Numbered from the stretch's first letter, positions 5,019-10,656 are shown. The stretch is DNA of 64,000 nucleotides from Candidatus Enterousia sp. (GCA_045648885.1 JAZROV010000003.1:3179-67178); one strand, 5' to 3'. Made by a program: numbers and translations. Notes: generated by a model not told the origin, from the letters alone.

Positions 5019-5477
5019 ATGCCAAAAGAAATCAGATTCTGTCAACCCGTTGGCCAATGGTGGTTTTTATCGCCGCTGGCTAAATTCCCAATACAAATGT
5101 CCATAGATGGAACAAACTACACATTTCCTTCGGTTGAACACTATTACCAAGCAATGAAATTTTATACATCTGACCCGCGTTTTAATACGATTTTAAAAAT
5201 GGAAGACGCGGATGCTGCACGTTTGATCACCAAAACCCCAGAATACAAAACAAACCGTCGGCCTGATTTTGATAAAAACAAATTTGATATTATGGAACGT
5301 GGTCTGCGTGCGAAATTCGCACAAAACCCTGTGGCAGCTGAAATGTTAAAGAATACGGGCGATGCGATATTGGTAAAATCTTGTCCTGTGTGTTATAAAT
5401 GCGGTTTTGGCGAAGGCAGCGGCACAAATCGTATTGGTAAAATATTAATGGAAATCAGGAAAGAATTACAAAAATAG
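5019..5477 (+). CDS. NADAR (YbiA/DUF1768) family protein
   Basis: The motif FPSVEHYYQAMKF and the size (152 aa) are typical of the NADAR domain. Confidence 0.7.
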   Translation: MPKEIRFCQPVGQWWFLSPLAKFPIQMSIDGTNYTFPSVEHYYQAMKFYTSDPRFNTILKMEDADAARLITKTPEYKTNRRPDFDKNKFDIMERGLRAKFAQNPVAAEMLKNTGDAILVKSCPVCYKCGFGEGSGTNRIGKILMEIRKELQK

Positions 5478-5535
5478 CACATCACTATTTTTTTATTGCA
5501 AAATCAAAGAATGTATATATAATGTTCTCAGTCAT

Positions 5536-5609
5536 TGGAGCGTCGTCTAATGGTAGGACAAGAGATTTTGGTTCTCTTTATCATGGTTCGAATCCGTGCG
5601 CTCCAACCA
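5536..5609 (+). tRNA. tRNA-Gln (anticodon UUG), CCA encoded
   Basis: Hand-folded cloverleaf. Acceptor TGGAGCG/CGCTCCA, anticodon stem AGAGA/TCTCT with loop TTTTGGT, T-arm CATGG-TTCGAAT-CCGTG, discriminator A then CCA. Promoter TTGCAA-N16-TATAAT lies upstream. Confidence 0.9.
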
Positions 5610-5618
5610 GAATAAACA

Positions 5619-5648
5619 AAAACACCCTTTTGGGTGTTTTTATTTATT
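5619..5648 (+). terminator. Intrinsic terminator after tRNA-Gln
   Basis: AACACCC-TTTT-GGGTGTT followed by a T-rich run. Confidence 0.7.
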
Positions 5649-5770
5649 CCTGGGCGCACGGATACGCCAGAGCGAAGCGCATGGCGAATACGCAGATGAA
5701 CAATTAGCAACCGCGCAAAAACGGATATTTTTAATAGAGTTTTTGCCCAGCGGTTGGTTATTGTTTATCA

Positions 5771-5842
5771 AGGTCTCGTGCGCATTCCAGAGAGCAAAAA
5801 TATAAGACTTTGGCTAGTTCGAAAGTTTGGATTTGAATTTTT
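5771..5842 (+). repeat. ~72 bp intergenic repeat, copy 1 (CATTCCAGAGAGCAAAAA...AGTTCGAAAGTTT...ATTTGAATTTTT)
   Basis: Co-linear with 10039..10110 by eye. Confidence 0.6.
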
Positions 5843-5869
5843 ATGTCGTTATTAACACTTTCGAACTAG
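5814..5869. repeat. Perfect 13 bp inverted repeat CTAGTTCGAAAGT / ACTTTCGAACTAG with a 30 bp spacer
   Basis: 5814..5826 is the reverse complement of 5857..5869. A third TTCGAACT box lies at 5889..5896. Confidence 0.85.
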
Positions 5870-5991
5870 ATACATTAGCAATTTTACATTCGAACTGGTA
5901 AAAAGGTTAAATTTATAATAATAAACCACCCCGTTTGACATTATAGTTCAATGTAGTTGTGGTGTGTGGGCAAAACAGAAATACGATTTCA

Positions 5992-6426
5992 TCACCTTCC
6001 CGAATTTAATTCTTTTTCCATTACGCGCGAACCGAGCGTTTGAGATACCGTTCTTTCAATCTCAATTATTCGCTGTTTGGCTGCATCAACGTGAAGAGCA
6101 TTCAATGGTGCTGAATCTACTAAAAATTCTTGCTGGACCTGGGACAACTTACGCAAATCACCCCCCGAGATGTATAATACTTCTGTTTTTTTATCATCTA
6201 AAGAAACTGTTTTTTTCAAAAATATCCCATGTTTAGCATACACTTCCATGACAAAGTCAATATTTGATATTGCTATTTCATCGTTAAACATACCTGGTTT
6301 GGGGTAAATATACCTATCTGTGCCTGCACCTAGCTTGCAATCAACAATCAAATAATGCAATATTTCCTTATCTAGCCATAAGTGTTCCACTTTTTGTCGG
6401 CCTCTAACAAAATTAAAAATTCCCAT
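5992..6426 (-). CDS. Hypothetical protein (144 aa)
   Basis: Intact ORF. Upstream on the minus strand is TTGCAT-N17-TATAAT, with RBS AAGGAG before the ATG. Confidence 0.55.
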   Translation of the reverse strand: MGIFNFVRGRQKVEHLWLDKEILHYLIVDCKLGAGTDRYIYPKPGMFNDEIAISNIDFVMEVYAKHGIFLKKTVSLDDKKTEVLYISGGDLRKLSQVQQEFLVDSAPLNALHVDAAKQRIIEIERTVSQTLGSRVMEKELNSGR

Positions 6427-6497
6427 TTTGCGCTCCTTGTTTTTATTAATATGCTTGAATTATAACAAAAAAATGTCATTTATGCAACTCGCGTTTC

Positions 6498-6714
6498 GCC
6501 CGCACACCACAACCAATATTCAACCACCCCTTGTGGTGCGTTTTAATATTGGCTTTTGGAGCCACAGTTTGCAATCTGCAACGAAGTTGCCGGTTCGACT
6601 ATGAGTAAGCGAAAACAAGCCTTGCGCAGTTTGAGCGCTAACGAATGCGGCGCAGTGTCGGCATAGCCGACCAAGCCAATCCGTGCGCAGTTATTGTGGT
6701 TGTTGTGTGTGGGC
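6498..6714. repeat. MITE-like GC-rich element (~217 bp) with imperfect 18 bp terminal inverted repeats and internal tRNA-Gln-like fragments
   Basis: Left end GCCCGCACACCACAACCA (6498..6515). Right end TGGTTGTTGTGTGTGGGC (6697..6714), whose reverse complement GCCCACACACAACAACCA matches 16 of 18 positions. Internal TGGAGCC, GGTTCGAC and the 11-mer AATCCGTGCGC (6678..6688) are identical or similar to parts of tRNA-Gln. Confidence 0.5.
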
Positions 6715-6726
6715 GAAAAAACAAAC

Positions 6727-7290
6727 TTATAAACATTCCTGCATTGAATACGATTTACGGCCAACATAAATCTCATTTTTCTTGATTTGTAAATATATTG
6801 GCAAGTGCTCATATTCGCCGACATAATTAGAACTATTTGTATTTTCTGGTGTAAAAATTATGCTGCCACCACCCAGCAGTTGGATTTCTGCTATATCATC
6901 AAAAACCAATATAGATTTCGCAGTTATGAATTTATTATCAACTGTGCATCTAGCATTTAAGAGTTTATATTTTGATTTTTCACAGATATAAAAACCGTTG
7001 ATTTTATGAATCAAGCTTGAATGTTTTGATTGGCATGCTGCAGAACAGTCAGCCAAACAATCTTGGATATTTTTTTCTTTTGCCTCTTTTTCTTTTTGTT
7101 TCGCTAAATCTTTTTTATTTTCATATTTGGTTTCATCAAATTCATATTTTTTATATTCTTTAACGTTTTTCCATTCAGATGACACATGATAATTATCAAC
7201 CGATTCCACATTGCACCAACAATACGGACCAATATTGATATTCTTAAAATTCAAGATTTCTTCATCATCAATACAAATCGCCACACCCAT
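6727..7290 (-). CDS. Cys-rich hypothetical protein. No signal peptide of its own; possibly the downstream part of a frameshifted gene
   Basis: ORF 6727..7299 starts at a TTG; the first in-frame ATG is at 7290. This frame is open for about 20 more codons upstream and overlaps the 3-prime end of the preceding signal-peptide ORF. Confidence 0.45.
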   Translation of the reverse strand: MGVAICIDDEEILNFKNINIGPYCWCNVESVDNYHVSSEWKNVKEYKKYEFDETKYENKKDLAKQKEKEAKEKNIQDCLADCSAACQSKHSSLIHKINGFYICEKSKYKLLNARCTVDNKFITAKSILVFDDIAEIQLLGGGSIIFTPENTNSSNYVGEYEHLPIYLQIKKNEIYVGRKSYSMQECL

Positions 7291-7295
7291 AACAT

Positions 7296-7532
7296 TCAAG
7301 TTATTATCTTTTTCGTTTTGTAATGACCATCGCCCGCTAGTATATGCCCCATCGGCACTTTTATAATCCCTTTTTTCAATTTTATCAGCAGAGATTTTTT
7401 GTTATACATATTTGTACCGAGCTTATCAGATTCCACTTTTATAAGTTTTTCATCCATACCATCTTGACAATCAATTGCGAATCCAGATGAAACAAAAAAA
7501 GATAAAAATACAAACAATAGAAATTTTCTCAT
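7296..7532 (-). CDS. Small signal-peptide protein (78 aa), possibly the N-terminal part of a frameshifted gene
   Basis: Reads MRKFLLFVFLSFFVSSGFAIDCQDG... from ATG 7532. Its stop TGA (7298..7296) abuts the next ORF. Confidence 0.45.
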   Translation of the reverse strand: MRKFLLFVFLSFFVSSGFAIDCQDGMDEKLIKVESDKLGTNMYNKKSLLIKLKKGIIKVPMGHILAGDGHYKTKKIIT

Positions 7533-7623
7533 TACTCTCTCTATCCACAAAGGAATTATATCATAAAAACTTCTATTTATAAACCATTTATGGTATAATT
7601 AGTTCGTTAACCAGGAGAAAAAA

Positions 7624-8025
7624 ATGAAAAAATGGCAAGAAATTTTATTGTGGATTGTATGTTTTGCTTTTGTAGACATAACATTCGAATTCATAAAAAC
7701 ACTGATAGAAAATGGAACTTTGAACAAATGGATTTTCGCATTATTTGCACTGGCGATATTTGTTATTGGATGGACAATAGTATTTATAAGTGCCAAATCA
7801 TTAAAAAGCAAAAAAACAGCAAAAAAGAATAGTTGGGTTGTTGGTTTTATATATTTTGTCATCATCTGGTCCGTTTGCATGATTTTTGATTTAATGAAAT
7901 ATTCGCTAGAAAATAACATACTAAACATATACTATTTCTTTGGTATAGGTTTTGCATTAATGTTTACCGGTTGGGCGTGTGGACATTTGGAATACGTACT
8001 GTCAAAGAACAAAAAACTCAAATAA
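7624..8025 (+). CDS. Small integral membrane protein (133 aa, about 4 TM)
   Basis: RBS AGGAGA upstream; hydrophobic segments throughout. Confidence 0.55.
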   Translation: MKKWQEILLWIVCFAFVDITFEFIKTLIENGTLNKWIFALFALAIFVIGWTIVFISAKSLKSKKTAKKNSWVVGFIYFVIIWSVCMIFDLMKYSLENNILNIYYFFGIGFALMFTGWACGHLEYVLSKNKKLK

Positions 8026-8042
8026 AGAAAATATTTTACTTT

Positions 8043-8262
8043 AACTCGCGTTTTGCCAGCACCCCACAACCACACTTCGCGTCTGCGACGCTTCGTGTGG
8101 CGGGCCACACGGACGGAGCAGTTATCGCAAAGTAGTGCCGCGCCGTAGCCGACGCGTTTATCGGACAATATTAAAAATTCCTGATACTTTATTTTCGAAA
8201 TTAAGCACTTGCGAAGGCGGGCCAGTTCTGCCACACAAGCCAATCTGGGCGATGTAATCAGT
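8043..8262. repeat. GC-rich intergenic repeat fragment related to 6486..6714
   Basis: Shares AACTCGCGTTT(C/T)GCC.GCAC.CCACAACCA at its start, then a hairpin (CCACAC...GTGTGG), then GCCGTAGCCGAC and CAAGCCAATC.G.GCG blocks. Confidence 0.5.
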
Positions 8263-9993
8263 CTATTTGTTTCGCGGATCAGATAATAATGCAATAATAT
8301 TTGCAATAGCTTTTTTTCGTGTTTTTATTTGCTGTTTCCAAGATTCAATGACTTTGTCGTCTATACCAACAATATCATCCAATTTATTTTCCATATAAAT
8401 CGGAACAAAAGATTTGGCGTTTAATCGTGTATCGCGCAAATAAATTTTTCCATAAATATTACGCGGCATTCCATACAACGAAGTTAACGGATTGTTACTA
8501 AAACTGACATCGCGAATAATGGTACGTGGTGCACCATTTAAATTTTGCAATTCATTGCCACCGCAATAGAAAGAACCTCTGATTGTCACAGTATGCATAT
8601 CTGGTAATTTGGTTAATTTCATACCATGTAAATCTAGATAGCTGTTTATCACAAAATTTTCTGGTAAATCAAATACATCATACAGTTGATCATTCTGTTT
8701 AAAATAAGCGATTGCTGGATTCCAGCCATTAACATCAGGAATATCCAATTTTTCTGCGCGCATAAGCATTCTGACCGCCGTTCTTAATTTTTCGTCTTTT
8801 GGTATAGTGTTTTTATAACCACGACATTGGACTATCTGACCATAATTTACCTCTATGGTTAAATGTGGGTAACCAGTTGCGTCACGTACAGAATAGATTT
8901 GACAATATTCTTCGTGAACCAGTTCATCCCAATATCCTTCGCCAACACAATGACTCATACACTGCGATTCAAAATCTAATGATTGTGGTGTAAATAATTG
9001 AACCGCGTAATATCCGTCGTTTAAATCCATTATTTTATATGCACCGCGTTCCGATTCACGATAAAAATTTTCCCTGTTTCTGGCTAAACCGATTTTATTT
9101 TTGTGCCATTGGCGCGCCAATTTCAGCGTCCCAGAAAAATTATTATATTCATTGCAACTTTTCAAATAATCAAATCGAACAATTACATTGTGTTTGGTTT
9201 TAACCGCATTTGATATTTGGGTATCAATATATTGTTCCGCGACAGAATATAAAAAATCACGAATTTGGTTTATGTTTTGTTTTAATTTGTCATCTAATTT
9301 ATTTGCATCAAATTTTCTGGGAAAAGTTATGCGCGCCAAATGCGCACGAATTTTTTTATTAAAATATTGATATAAAATGCCGCGAATAATTATGTCTTTG
9401 TTTTTATAGATTTCATCCAAATTAAATTCTTGTTTAATTGTTTTGCGATATTCAGTTTTTTCTATTTTTCCACTGAATAAAATTTTATTAAAATAATCAT
9501 CCATAGATTGCGGAAACGCTTTTTCAAACGCTATCAATTCACGCTTTAATTCAACAATCGCATTATTACGCAAAGAATTATCCAGACACTTTATTATTAA
9601 TTGCATATTATTAGGCAATATAACAACATTATATCCACGCGCAACCAGCATATTATACATCTTCGTCACAATGTCAGCATCATAGAATGTTATCGTATAT
9701 TGAATAAACTTTTGATTTTTATCCCAATCCAGGCCAATACGAATAAAATCAGACAAAGTTTTTTCGTCCAATATTTCTAACGGGATAACATAATGAAAAC
9801 CGTTATTATCAACGTCTGTTATTGATAATTGGCGAAAATCTTGACGTAATTGACGACAAATTGTATCTGCACGCCCAGAATCACCACAAAACAGCACAAA
9901 ACCCGTCAATTCTTCGAGATTTATGCTTTGAACGTTCGGTATAAAATTAACAAAATCGGTCGTCATAATATGTTTCTGGGTTCTGTTCGCCAT
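8263..9993 (-). CDS. PcfJ-like domain protein with C-terminal leucine-rich repeats (576 aa)
   Basis: The block CMSHCVGEGYWDELVHEEYCQIYSVRDATGYPHLTIEVNYGQIVQCRGYKN matches my recollection of the PcfJ-like (PF14284) core. C-terminal LRR-like units include LTKLPDMHTVTIRGSFYCGGNELQNLNGAP and FSNNPLTSLYGMP. Confidence 0.55.
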   Translation of the reverse strand: MANRTQKHIMTTDFVNFIPNVQSINLEELTGFVLFCGDSGRADTICRQLRQDFRQLSITDVDNNGFHYVIPLEILDEKTLSDFIRIGLDWDKNQKFIQYTITFYDADIVTKMYNMLVARGYNVVILPNNMQLIIKCLDNSLRNNAIVELKRELIAFEKAFPQSMDDYFNKILFSGKIEKTEYRKTIKQEFNLDEIYKNKDIIIRGILYQYFNKKIRAHLARITFPRKFDANKLDDKLKQNINQIRDFLYSVAEQYIDTQISNAVKTKHNVIVRFDYLKSCNEYNNFSGTLKLARQWHKNKIGLARNRENFYRESERGAYKIMDLNDGYYAVQLFTPQSLDFESQCMSHCVGEGYWDELVHEEYCQIYSVRDATGYPHLTIEVNYGQIVQCRGYKNTIPKDEKLRTAVRMLMRAEKLDIPDVNGWNPAIAYFKQNDQLYDVFDLPENFVINSYLDLHGMKLTKLPDMHTVTIRGSFYCGGNELQNLNGAPRTIIRDVSFSNNPLTSLYGMPRNIYGKIYLRDTRLNAKSFVPIYMENKLDDIVGIDDKVIESWKQQIKTRKKAIANIIALLSDPRNK

Positions 9994-10038
9994 AAAACAT
10001 AATACAAATTATTCGTTTTGTCAAATATTGTGTTGTCA

Positions 10039-10110
10039 GGGTCCCACACACATTCCAAAGAGCAAAAAATAATTTTTTCACAAGTTCGAAAGTTTTATTT
10101 TGAATTTTTG
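10039..10110 (+). repeat. ~72 bp intergenic repeat, copy 2
   Basis: GGGTCCCACACACATTCCAAAGAGCAAAAA...AGTTCGAAAGTTTT...TTTGAATTTTT is co-linear with 5771..5842. Confidence 0.6.
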
Positions 10111-10128
10111 CTGGTTTTATTTTTAATA

Positions 10129-10656
10129 TTAATCAAACATTTCATTAAATATTTTATTACATTTTATTAAACTTTCACGCCAATCATCGCCATTTCCATT
10201 ATCACTTATATACTTATAACAACTGAATTGCACATTATTTTCCGGTGCATTGCAAACTTTGGCTATTGCGAAAGATTCCATATCTACTATTTCATAATCA
10301 TTGTTCCAATCAGTCACAAAACTGTCGCCGGTAAAACAAGTTTTTGATTCTGGACCGGCATCACCATTCGTTAAAACTGTCGTATAACCACTGTCTGGGA
10401 AACACCAATCTCTGTCAACAGTTGTCCCTATGTTATACACATGGCCCGCTTTAACTTTGTTCGGATTTCCACCCGCAGAGCCGACATTTATAATTTTTTT
10501 TACATCAAAATTATCAATCAGCCACTGTACAGACATTGCCGCATTTATTTTTCCCATACCTGTATATAAAACATTATGTTTATCCGAAGAAAATTCTTCT
10601 TCCAGTGCGACAACGAACCATGTTGAATCATTTTTATTTTTTACCGATACTTTCAT
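10129..10656 (-). CDS. Nucleoside phosphorylase-I family protein, MTA/SAH nucleosidase (MtnN/Pfs)-like
   Basis: Motif pattern VVALEEE...YTGMGKINAA...IINVGSAGG...FTGDSF...IVDMESFAIAKVC...YKYISD. Preferred start is ATG 10656 with RBS AAAGGAAAA. Confidence 0.6.
   Translation of the reverse strand: MKVSVKNKNDSTWFVVALEEEFSSDKHNVLYTGMGKINAAMSVQWLIDNFDVKKIINVGSAGGNPNKVKAGHVYNIGTTVDRDWCFPDSGYTTVLTNGDAGPESKTCFTGDSFVTDWNNDYEIVDMESFAIAKVCNAPENNVQFSCYKYISDNGNGDDWRESLIKCNKIFNEMFD

Follow-up and report, generated by a model that had tools for sequence, protein, structure and literature searches.

Inverted-end gene cassettes and structured miniature elements downstream of tRNA-Gln in Candidatus Enterousia

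Introduction

What are the GC-rich repeats that separate the accessory genes downstream of a tRNA-Gln gene in Candidatus Enterousia sp., and do they move by themselves or with the genes that they bound? The repeats occupy positions 5610-10128 of a 64,000-nucleotide stretch of DNA (GCA_045648885.1 JAZROV010000003.1:3179-67178), hereafter the window, to which all unprefixed coordinates refer. A first-pass annotation of this DNA had viewed six GC-rich stretches as diverged copies of one family that partitions the accessory tract, one of which, at 6498-6714, was likened to a miniature inverted-repeat transposable element (MITE), of 217 bp and carrying pieces of tRNA-Gln. The repeats are indeed real, but the evidence presented here supports neither a single family nor a MITE. 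Rather, the inverted repeats are the ends of gene cassettes that are exchanged as units, and the sequence that splits a T-loop-like segment between two of these cassettes is a separate small element, termed here the T-loop insertion element (TLI). Enterousia belongs to the order Rs-D84, the members of which have genomes of <1 Mb (PMC12306168). On balance we favour the view that this interval forms the tRNA-proximal end of a hypervariable cassette dock, conserved throughout the lineage of Candidatus Enterousia and its relatives.

Results

Accessory genes are carried between inverted ends

The strongest signal in the interval was a 22-30 nt motif, (AACTCGCG)TTTYGCCCRCACACCACAACCA, the core of which occurs four times against 0.15 expected, all within 5954-8072 and nowhere else in the 64 kb. 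An exact-pattern scan with the repeat core, using one genome per species, returned 33 genome loci, and metagenomes supplied 38 more; in all of these the motif was mapped with mismatches, alongside the tRNA genes. The labels L002, L004 and so on denote the related loci (>70) gathered in these motif scans. The 33 genome loci all derive from rumen or gut metagenome-assembled genomes (MAGs) titled Candidatus Enterousia sp., Alphaproteobacteria bacterium or uncultured proteobacterium. Nearly all matches lie 0.2-1.7 kb 3' of tRNA-Gln, near conserved OEP and MarR genes, and the upstream flank in all loci is OEP-MarR-(NADAR)-tRNA-Gln. In the nearest loci the OEP and MarR proteins are 80-88% identical to those of the window; exact-protein lookup of the NADAR gene product returned no record.

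The loci have a common layout, in which tRNA-Gln(UUG) is followed by a leader spacer of 0.2-1.7 kb, a left end, one or two open reading frames (ORFs) on either strand, and a right end. Often a further unit follows after a spacer of 72-554 nt, the content of which varies, and up to three units stand in a row. The conserved 22 bp inverted ends read TGGTTGTGGTGTGTGGGCGAAA on the left and (AACTCGCG)TTTCGCCCACACACCACAACCA on the right, and the AACTCGCG side is distal to tRNA-Gln in every array that is oriented by the tRNA gene. More than 40 such cassettes, 0.4-2 kb in length, were identified, all with 22 bp inverted ends and cargo without a transposase, which is a trait of mobile insertion cassettes (MICs). 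The cargo comprises at least 23 unrelated protein clusters, including RNase T-type exonucleases, Pol-beta nucleotidyltransferases, EEP nucleases, methyltransferases, APH-like proteins, membrane or surface proteins and many unknowns; a recombinase is present in none.

What is exchanged, from genome to genome and from slot to slot, is the cassette bounded by its inverted ends. Thus L004:7509-8782, which occupies the second slot of its array, is 98.7% identical to L021:3560-4833 in the first slot, L018:905-1783 and L023:3235-4113 are 98.5% identical, L011:3862-4585 matches L024 at 99.3%, and the more distant L018:1975-2710 and L019:1717-2449 retain 83.6% identity. In all four pairs identity halts within or at the inverted ends, and the flanks differ. 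The first of the two window cassettes (Table 1) lies in a segment, 5799-6692, that is 93% identical to L004; cassette 1 itself displays 93% DNA and 99% protein identity, compared with 78% for the L004 backbone. Its ORF has no Pfam or PADLOC match. In the second, 6697-8025 is 91% identical to L035:1796-3125, the similarity beginning exactly at the left end, and the right-end segment of L035 differs; the diverged right end of the window cassette, 8043-8072, is instead 100% identical to L033:4186-4215. The two ends of one cassette are also more alike than the ends of different cassettes (permutation p = 0.004, 39 distinct cassettes), and the same derived variant is present at both ends of cassettes in L011, L017, L018, L055 and L077. 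In the ankyrin-repeat cassette of L035 the inner repeat is wholly different at both ends, with the outer 9 bp retained.

Several further observations concern the ends and the cargo. Variant ends were noted in L035 (425-1628 and 3197-3222), L015, L033 and L011. The ankyrin-repeat cassette terminates in TGCTTGTGGCCGGCCAGCATAACGC and GCGTTATGCTGGCCGGCCACAACCA, and a second form of right end, CGCGAATTGCACA.A.AGCACAACCA, is accompanied by a left end of the canonical form. Variation at the ends also includes T or G at position 7 and T or C at position 14. The lipoprotein-like cargo gene of cassette 2 (6727-7299 and 7296-7550, minus strand) is split by a frameshift, and its homologue in the matching L035 cassette is 96-98% identical. 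The possibility that the right end is itself a tRNA 3' half was considered and rejected; no T-arm is formed, and identity to tRNA-Gln, aligned by eye, is 14/28.

The 217 bp element is a composite

The stretches named in the first-pass annotation are GC-rich (0.46-0.57, compared with 0.38 for the window and 0.34 for 5610-10128), and the short blocks quoted from them were all found at the places given. The block AACTCGCGTTT.GCC.GCAC.CCACAACCA is present at 6486-6515 and 8043-8072, the 18 bp arms at 6498-6515 and 6697-6714 are complementary at 16/18 positions, and the 11-mer AATCCGTGCGC at 6678-6688 reproduces tRNA-Gln 5591-5601 exactly. TGGAGCC lies at 6557-6563 and GGTTCGAC at 6592-6599. Three patterns each have two matches against none expected, namely AAAACAAGC..GCGCAGTTT (6612-6632 and 19090-19115), TWACGAATGNNGCGCAG (6639-6655 and 19227-19243) and CAAGCCAATCNGNGCG (6672-6687 and 8236-8251); these were picked after the fact, and it is their homologues in other genomes that validate them. 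A further block, G.C.TAGCCGAC, was near chance, with 3 matches versus 0.83 expected.

Although repeated GC-rich non-coding modules with tRNA-derived pieces do mark gene boundaries beside tRNA-Gln, the six stretches are not diverged copies of one sequence, as each belongs to a different conserved module in other genomes. Self-BLAST, which had to be gapped since a gapless repeat finder missed the repeats, links only 6470-6515 to 8028-8072 (E = 4e-5), together with the inverted ends; for 5650-5725 and for 23633-23695 no significant similarity to the other stretches was detected. At least five module families, and not one, thus lie along the accessory tract.

It follows from the exchange of cassettes as units that the 18 bp terminal inverted repeats ascribed to the MITE belong to cassettes 1 and 2, being the right end of the former and the left end of the latter, the outer ends of two adjacent cargo cassettes. 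The flanks of 6498-6714, ...AACTCGCGTTTC and GAAAAAACAAAC..., are not direct repeats and hence provide no target-site duplication, and self-BLAST finds the ends alone, rather than the whole unit, elsewhere. The ‘217 bp MITE' is therefore a composite of the cassette 1 right end, a terminator, a pseudo-tRNA-Gln that carries a TLI, and the cassette 2 left end.

TLI is a structured element inserted at GTTCG^AA

Split T-loops are recurrent, with 53-116 nt lying between TTCG and A(A/T)TCC in the pseudo-tRNA-Gln and pseudo-tRNA-Glu of many genomes. The inserted sequences of types 1, 3 and 4 obey a common grammar, A-N4-N-AGTAR, hairpin, YACG-N4, SSCGCAG, hairpin, GAGSS. A five-helix structure was drawn on eight type-3 and type-4 copies, all from other genomes. 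In this seed alignment 94% of cells are paired, and 10 of the 24 pairs change on both sides while none changes on one side only; 0 of 500 shuffles reached the observed value and slid controls gave at most 41% pairing. The covariance model R1, built from other genomes' copies with those of the window excluded, finds 34 TLI copies in 76 loci, 29 of them distinct. Across the distinct copies, as fitted to the model, 88.6% of cells are paired and 17/23 pairs are compensatory, with slid controls at 44% or less; helix P4 is 98.8% paired and alternates between GGC/GCC, CGC/GCG and CCC/GGG. RNAalifold applied to a MAFFT alignment of the type-1 copies alone yielded a weak fold (-6 kcal/mol), because these copies barely vary; covariation appeared once types 3 and 4 were used.

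Within the window R1 recovers the insert between the two cassettes and a second copy near tRNA-Glu (Table 1), but not 19069-19173 (E = 4.3) or 8192-8246 (E = 6.6). The proposal that a small element family is associated with T-loop-like sequence near two tRNA genes is thus borne out, the family being TLI. It had also been proposed that the insert in the split tRNA-Glu T-loop, 19075-19174, is homologous to the insert on the tRNA-Gln side; the two share one hairpin but are of different types, and the clear homologue of 6598-6677 is 19194-19260, located 3' of the pseudo-tRNA-Glu 3' end.

All 34 copies start after (G)TTCG, with the exception of two variants, and are followed by AA. The copy at 6598-6677 is flanked by GTTCG and AATCC, and has neither inverted ends nor a target duplication. 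The flanks are not restricted to T-loops. In L029 (twice) TLI interrupts a box, AGTTCG/AAAGT, of the promoter-like R80 module described below, as it does the box ACCAGTTCG/AATGT of L024 and L060; most genomes have these boxes uninterrupted. The constancy of the flanks and the interruption of boxes that are not T-loops indicate that TLI behaves as a small insertion element with the target GTTCG^AA. TLI is a separate element of ~80 nt with a conserved two-domain fold; its occupancy of GTTCG^AA, whether in T-loop-like sequence or in a TTCGAA box, is polymorphic.

The absence of inverted ends and of a duplication, the location 3' of a fixed short target and the subterminal hairpins P3 and P5 are traits of IS200/IS605-type miniature elements; neither a Y1 (HUH) transposase nor TnpB was found among the related loci. 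Rfam 15, at both gathering and permissive thresholds, returned only tRNA and rRNA in the window, with 5400-10300 and 18800-24000 empty even at E 5-10. Scans of viral contigs for TLI, and for the inverted end, gave matches at chance level only.

The spacers are mosaics of interchangeable modules

The spacers between cassettes are mosaics of terminator hairpins, pseudo-tRNA 3' pieces, the A-module, leaders of GIY-YIG elements and the R80 module. The terminator-like hairpin directly 3' of the window tRNA-Gln (5618-5641) recurs after cassette right ends elsewhere, for example in L019, and, reciprocally, the hairpin 3' of the cassette 1 right end (6523-6537) is homologous to one that follows tRNA-Gln itself in L002, L008, L016, L034 and L035. 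A small set of terminators is therefore interchangeable between the tRNA-Gln 3' end (...CTCCAACCA) and cassette right ends (...CCACAACCA), which are equivalent junction points for the same downstream modules.

The reference for every pseudo-tRNA piece is the tRNA-Gln 3' end, ...CGCTCCAACCA. Homologues of 6557-6688 in other loci contain a covarying hairpin, RCAAC-NNN-GTTGY. The L084 homologue ends with the full AATCCGTGCGCTCCAACCA (...CGCTCCAACCA), and those of L015 and L070 end with AATCAGCTGCCCCAACCA, which matches the tRNA-Gln allele of that genome group. The pseudo-tRNA pieces are thus kept in step with the resident tRNA allele.

The A-module is a second structured element, of ~130 nt, and the ‘copy' previously placed at 5650-5725 is its 5' half. 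BLAST detected 32 matches in 27 loci at 85-98% identity, with 24 distinct copies among them; RNAalifold gave -32 kcal/mol, with 12/35 pairs compensatory. Its outer stem, which encloses two covarying hairpins, is formed by GCGCACGGAT, the reverse complement of tRNA-Gln positions 58-67, and CTCGTGCGC, a pseudo 3' piece, and becomes GCAGCTGGAT/AGCTGCC where the tRNA-Gln allele differs (L015 and L047). There are two candidates for the nature of this closing stem, namely an inverted duplication of the target and a guide-like segment with complementarity to the tRNA.

The R80 module resembles a promoter or operator. It contains GTTCGAA boxes at 5817-5824, 5859-5866 and 5888-5895, a partial second copy lies at 10033-10109, and its end, ...AGTTCAATG, was never found without an adjoining left cassette end. 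The boxes AGTTCGAAAGT and ACTTTCGAACT are probably the operator of one regulator for the accessory genes.

Three side observations relate to this module. In many loci the arrangement AGTTCGAAAGT-N35-ACTTTCGAACT stands just upstream of TATAAT. The GTTCGAAA box occurs in the window at 5817, 5859, 10084, 19361, 20047, 22596 and 28298, six of the seven being in intergenic DNA of the accessory tract, and is without overall enrichment in the window. A GC-rich insert of 31 nt, cgaagtcacggcgtagcaaagcgaagacgga, occupies precisely the junction of the R80 end (..TTCAATG) with the left cassette end in L021 (3529-3559), L024 and L034 (two places), and may be another tiny insertion element.

Small GIY-YIG elements complete the mosaic. 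Their ORFs, of 79-81 aa, encode the catalytic domain only (PF01541, E = 2.5e-16) and were identified in five loci, directly after the 3' end of tRNA-Gln or tRNA-Glu or after a cassette right end (Table 1). On either side of the L056 element lies an exact repeat, 19 nt in length, of the 3' end of tRNA-Glu starting from T-loop position 58. Two of the stretches previously regarded as family members contain remnants of such elements. Beyond the cassette 2 right end, the first part of the supposed copy at 8043-8262 is a GIY-YIG leader (8073-8150), after which 8236-8251, with an R1 E value of 6.6, is a TLI remnant at best. At the other, 23627-23661 is 100% identical to L056:5375-5409, which lies directly 3' of tRNA-Glu and before a 79-aa GIY-YIG ORF.

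Discussion

This locus combines a cassette platform with miniature insertion elements, and harbours two new structured families that are well supported. We hold the anatomy of the dock, comprising the cassettes, spacer modules and TLI, to be very probable. As neither a transposase nor an integrase was found, the mechanism is inferred, and is offered tentatively. A protein acting in trans would recognize the 22 bp ends and swap cassettes at fixed slots in one orientation; recognition in trans is suggested by the near-identity of the ends across genomes in which the flanking proteins are only ~40% identical. New units would be joined at the ...CAACCA common to the tRNA-Gln 3' end and every cassette right end, which would explain the occurrence of the same terminator modules after both. 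Such joining would push older units outward, leaving copies of the tRNA 3' end behind. TLI may spread as a non-autonomous insertion element that recognizes GTTCG^AA, possibly as folded single-stranded DNA in a manner similar to IS200/IS605 elements.

Several observations weigh against this account. No transposase or integrase is present in any cassette or spacer, or in the 10-20 kb flanks of L004, L085 and L087. Target-site duplications, empty slots and abutted end-to-end junctions were sought in the arrays and none was seen, and thus insertion and excision have never been observed, only exchange. Some breakpoints fall inside cassettes, such as that at 8025/8026 of the window in the comparison with L035. 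Since one end sequence hardly differs from another, it is impossible to say where within the 22 bp a crossover fell, and homologous recombination at the ends would produce an identical pattern. The covariation between the ends of a cassette is weak, at 20.2 versus 19.8 of 22 positions, and the pair counts for the 29 TLI copies come from a model-fitted alignment, which leans towards structure. It should be emphasized, in addition, that the loci were gathered by searching for the motif, and that its association with tRNA-Gln is stated for these loci. No cognate autonomous insertion sequence (IS) with the same ends was found in ~0.5 Mb of related loci or in viral contigs.

The main rival is homologous recombination or gene conversion after DNA uptake, in which the 22-30 bp ends and the tRNA-like flanks act as anchors and double-strand breaks introduced by the small GIY-YIG nucleases of some spacers may stimulate exchange in a homing-like manner. 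The GIY-YIG endonuclease SegB of phage T4 drives preferential inheritance of a tRNA gene region. At the present locus the ORFs of 79-81 aa located at tRNA ends or right ends, the 19 nt repeat in L056 and the remnants in the window (8073-8150 and 23633-23661) could reflect such activity, but these ORFs occur in just 5 of >70 loci and lack a DNA-binding domain. Recombination by homology is also in keeping with the failure to find a recombinase in the cassettes, spacers and examined flanks, and with the existence of all four combinations of two polymorphic end positions and of breakpoints within some cassettes. A length of 22 bp, however, lies at the lower limit of RecA-dependent exchange, homology anchors need neither an inverted arrangement nor a fixed orientation, and the near-identity of the ends despite flanking MarR proteins that are ~40% identical points to selection on the sequence itself. 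We consider this explanation unlikely, although it is the one that presses hardest on the cassette dock described above.

It could be argued that the locus represents an undescribed cassette-docking system, one with no integrase gene at the locus, that is guided by structure or nucleic acid and is distinct from classical transposons and integrons. Cargo between 22 bp ends, with a right end that mimics the tRNA 3' terminus, would be docked directionally behind tRNA-Gln, and TLI and the A-module would have been bred at the locus, recognizing the DNA of tRNA T-loops or acceptors by means of their own fold or of segments complementary to the tRNA. Such a system is conceivable and, in our estimation, similarly unlikely.

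An RNA-level role, with shuffling being incidental, appears improbable. The ends would be processing or stabilizing stems, like those that flank rRNA, and TLI and the A-module would function as small RNAs or as structures that regulate in cis. The strong covariation in TLI and the A-module, the G-U pairs at several TLI positions and the presence of terminators and promoter-like boxes among the modules are in harmony with this proposal, and a spacer with both arms (6486-6722) folds at -88.7 kcal/mol (z -4). Pairing of the ends is not maintained, however, as many cassettes have mismatched ends with G-A or C-U oppositions, and the ends are conserved in sequence beyond complementarity. Furthermore, TLI and the A-module have no Rfam match, and the interruption by TLI, in some genomes only, of boxes that are otherwise intact is the behaviour of an insertion.

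The remaining explanations are far less credible. The arms of a 217 bp MITE with 18 bp terminal inverted repeats, representing one diverged family across the tract, are complementary as described and the unit folds well; arrays do repeatedly show ~150-200 nt of spacer separating a right end from the left end that follows. The arms segregate with the neighbouring cassettes and not with the spacer, however, and in L002, L008, L034 and L035 the spacer interior directly follows tRNA-Gln without a left arm. As spacers range from 72 to 554 nt with variable content, lack target-site duplications, and the other ‘copies' are different modules, a MITE is very improbable. An integron-like array, in which a right end, spacer and next left end form a long, folded, attC-type site acted on by an integron integrase, is if anything more doubtful. 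An array of single-gene cassettes that are poor in promoters, with imperfect inverted repeats of variable centre between them, is suggestive of integrons, but no intI-like gene lies near any array, the called genes contain no Phage_integrase match, ORFs are on both strands, the GTTRRRY core is absent and spacers of 72-554 nt exceed attC sizes; in addition, identity spans both full inverted ends and not the spacer, whereas an integron cassette would take along its entire attC with just 6 nt of the one upstream. That the GC-rich blocks are remnants of one decayed protein-coding gene is scarcely tenable, because the 21-codon ORF (ATGAGTAAG...TAG) readable in 6601-6666 has TGA as its fourth codon in L008 and L015 and gains an in-frame TGA in L002, which led us to reject a coding reading of TLI, and because variation is compensatory in stems and does not fall at third codon positions.

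The cassette dock resembles several known systems and differs from each. MICs consist of passenger genes, without a transposase, between IS-type inverted repeats, as exemplified by the qnrD and qnrS2 MICs and the Tn3-like MICs of Xanthomonas (PMC3913671, PMC4337579). Similar to MICs, the cassettes have short conserved inverted ends around one or two cargo genes, are transposase-free and occur in different contexts. In contrast with MICs, they have no consistent direct repeats at their flanks and no known parent IS with the same ends, they stand in a stack, all oriented alike, at a single chromosomal site 3' of tRNA-Gln in which slots are always filled, and the right end has the additional conserved AACTCGCG and a tRNA-like terminus (..CAACCA). 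With integron arrays and clusters of attC sites lacking integrases (CALINs), the locus shares a chromosomal platform, variable and mostly single-gene cassettes of diverse or unknown function, and imperfect palindromic non-coding units between them. The integrase, attI and attC core are, however, absent at these loci, the unit has both inverted ends rather than one attC, genes are on either strand and the platform is anchored on a tRNA gene. The tycheposons of Prochlorococcus are tRNA-anchored islands built by serial integration (bioRxiv 10.1101/2020.12.28.424599). The two settings have in common a streamlined genome, flexible genes by tRNA genes, scattered partial tRNAs and, under the mechanism proposed above, newer units that push older ones outward. 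Tycheposons, however, are 3-10 kb or larger and have a tyrosine recombinase and replication genes, whereas the units described here measure 0.4-2 kb and hold nothing but cargo between their inverted repeats, with an integrase in no examined locus. A literature search for a tRNA-anchored array of inverted-end cassettes returned nothing relevant.

Short palindromic or MITE-type elements of bacteria include the Rickettsia palindromic elements, Correia, REP/BIME and RUP. TLI and the A-module are similar to these in being short, GC-richer, strongly folding and selfish-looking, in having no known transposase and in being located in a reduced alphaproteobacterial genome; TLI differs in having no terminal inverted repeats or duplication, in being strictly targeted to GTTCG^AA and in its conserved, covarying two-domain fold, and no sequence similarity to those families is known. 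Palindrome-associated transposable elements (PATEs) are miniature elements derived from IS200/IS605. As in PATEs, TLI has no inverted ends or duplication and lies immediately 3' of a fixed target, with hairpins P3 and P5 ~8-11 nt from its boundaries. In contrast with PATEs, helices P1 and P4 of TLI enclose hairpins, and the target extends beyond 4-5 nt to a T-loop-like context; to our knowledge, hairpin-enclosing helices such as P1 and P4 are not a feature of the IS200/IS605 family. The GIY-YIG ORFs resemble free-standing homing endonucleases such as T4 SegB in being small genes between or after tRNA genes in a region of mosaic inheritance, but the putative proteins contain the catalytic domain only and are accompanied by a duplicated tRNA 3' end.

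Rs-D84/Enterousia genomes are <1 Mb yet keep one conserved locus for the cassette exchange of diverse accessory genes. If the cassette dock is correctly interpreted, it would represent a compact route of gene flux in streamlined gut symbionts, comparable in function to integrons and tycheposons but of different construction. Two non-coding families with clear covariation and no Rfam counterpart, TLI and the A-module, were also recovered from the locus. As TLI targets the universal GTTCGA of tRNA T-loops, its targeting is directly testable and it is a potential site-specific insertion system, while the 22-mer and the TLI model are ready probes for mining cassettes from rumen and gut metagenomes.

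Additional features of the window

Table 1. Coordinates of the features described, with related GIY-YIG elements of other loci in the last row.
Feature	Position	Strand	Basis and details
tRNA-Gln(UUG)	5536-5609	+	ARAGORN; Rfam tRNA 58.7 bits; locus anchor
Terminator-like hairpin	5618-5641	+	Terminator scan; directly 3' of tRNA-Gln
A-module, structured element of ~130 nt	5654-5783	+	Minimum free energy -63.8 kcal/mol, z -6.9; BLAST
R80 promoter/operator-like module	5784-5953	+	Direct repeats D4 and D6, 78%
Cargo cassette 1, 562 bp	5954-6515		Motif matches; left end 5954-5975; ORF 5992-6426 (-, 144 aa); right end 6486-6515 = AACTCGCG + 22-mer
Inverted-end core motif	5956-5975; 6494-6513; 6699-6718; 8051-8070	-; +; -; +	Motif scan
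Terminator-like hairpin	6523-6537	+	Terminator scan; 3' of cassette 1 right end
Pseudo-tRNA-Gln 5' part	6557-6597	+	Acceptor-like TGGAGCC 6557-6563; hairpin GCAAC-GAA-GTTGC 6578-6590; T-arm 5' half GGTTCG 6592-6597
TLI type 1, 80 nt structured insertion	6598-6677	+	Between G57 and A58 of pseudo-T-loop; R1 match 6592-6682, E = 5e-6
Pseudo-tRNA-Gln 3' piece AATCCGTGCGC	6678-6688	+	Identical to 5591-5601
Cargo cassette 2, 1376 bp	6697-8072		Motif matches; left end 6697-6718; lipoprotein-like gene 6727-7299 / 7296-7550 (-); membrane-protein ORF 7624-8025 (+); diverged right end 8043-8072
tRNA-Gln-type GIY-YIG mini-element 5' leader, nuclease ORF lost	8073-8150	+	95% to L033 and L029, where an 81-aa GIY-YIG ORF follows
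Degenerate junction of TLI 3' end and pseudo-tRNA 3' piece (CAAGCC/AATCTGGGCG)	8236-8251	+	Pattern common to 6672-6687
tRNA-Glu(CUC)	18929-19003	+	ARAGORN, Rfam; second anchor, same kinds of modules
Pseudo-tRNA-Glu 3' half, split T-loop	19065-19193	+	CATGGGTTCG 19065-19074; type-B insert 19075-19174; 19 nt copy 19175-19193
TLI, second window copy	19194-19260	+	Directly after pseudo-tRNA-Glu ...GCCA; R1 match 19187-19265, E = 5e-4 (1e-4 with filters off)
Degenerate tRNA-Glu 3' end (GGCCCTGCCA), then tRNA-Glu-type GIY-YIG leader	23623-23661	+	Corresponds to the supposed copy 23633-23695
GIY-YIG mini-elements, other loci	L056 5381-5861; L029 3672-4060; L033 4216-4600; L020; L030		

The window is bacterial chromosome of 38% G+C that includes gyrA, an outer-membrane efflux operon and, at its end, 5S and 23S rRNA genes; gyrA is open under the standard code. 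PADLOC applied to ten window proteins gave no defence-system match. Downstream of cassette 2, a PcfJ-domain protein of 576 aa (8263-9993, minus strand) has ~40 homologues of 560-590 aa, one of them in an alphaproteobacterial MAG, and in the contexts fetched these are located in the gyrA-to-tRNA accessory tract or in another variable region. This PcfJ-like protein was weighed as a candidate recombinase, but it is not consistently beside the arrays of relatives and domain searches were uninformative. In L010 a different protein, a leucine-rich repeat protein of 578 aa, occupies a cassette.

On the tRNA-Glu side the split T-loop noted in the first-pass annotation was confirmed in the 3' copy of the tRNA. 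The insert measures 100 nt, and the last 19 nt of tRNA-Glu follow it without a mismatch, such that 18985-19003 is repeated at 19175-19193. This direct repeat, that around the GIY-YIG element of L056 and the pseudo-tRNA-Gln 3' ends in many spacers are traits of integrase-mediated tRNA islands. The insert, designated type B, has the form ...GAAAGGGGCCC-hairpin-GGGAATTAC and occupies the same T-loop position in the pseudo-tRNA-Gln of L009, L011 and L016; the hairpin AAAACAAGC..GCGCAGTTT is the only part that it has in common with type 1. Immediately 5' of the pseudo-tRNA-Glu T-arm half, GGGGATCGAACCC at 19053-19065 is a reverse T-arm-like sequence, and thus inverted tRNA fragments are present on the tRNA-Glu side too.

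A second repeat system is located on this side of the accessory tract. Direct repeats of 243 nt (89% identity) lie at 19919-20161 and 22468-22711, and further direct repeats of 121 nt at 20705-20825, 22407-22527 and 23500-23620; together they bracket a GNAT gene, a gene with a phage-lysozyme domain and a small ORF. Each 243 nt repeat contains a GTTCGAAA box and a near-perfect palindrome of 53 nt, TACGAAC...GTTCGTA, at 20089-20141 and 22639-22691.

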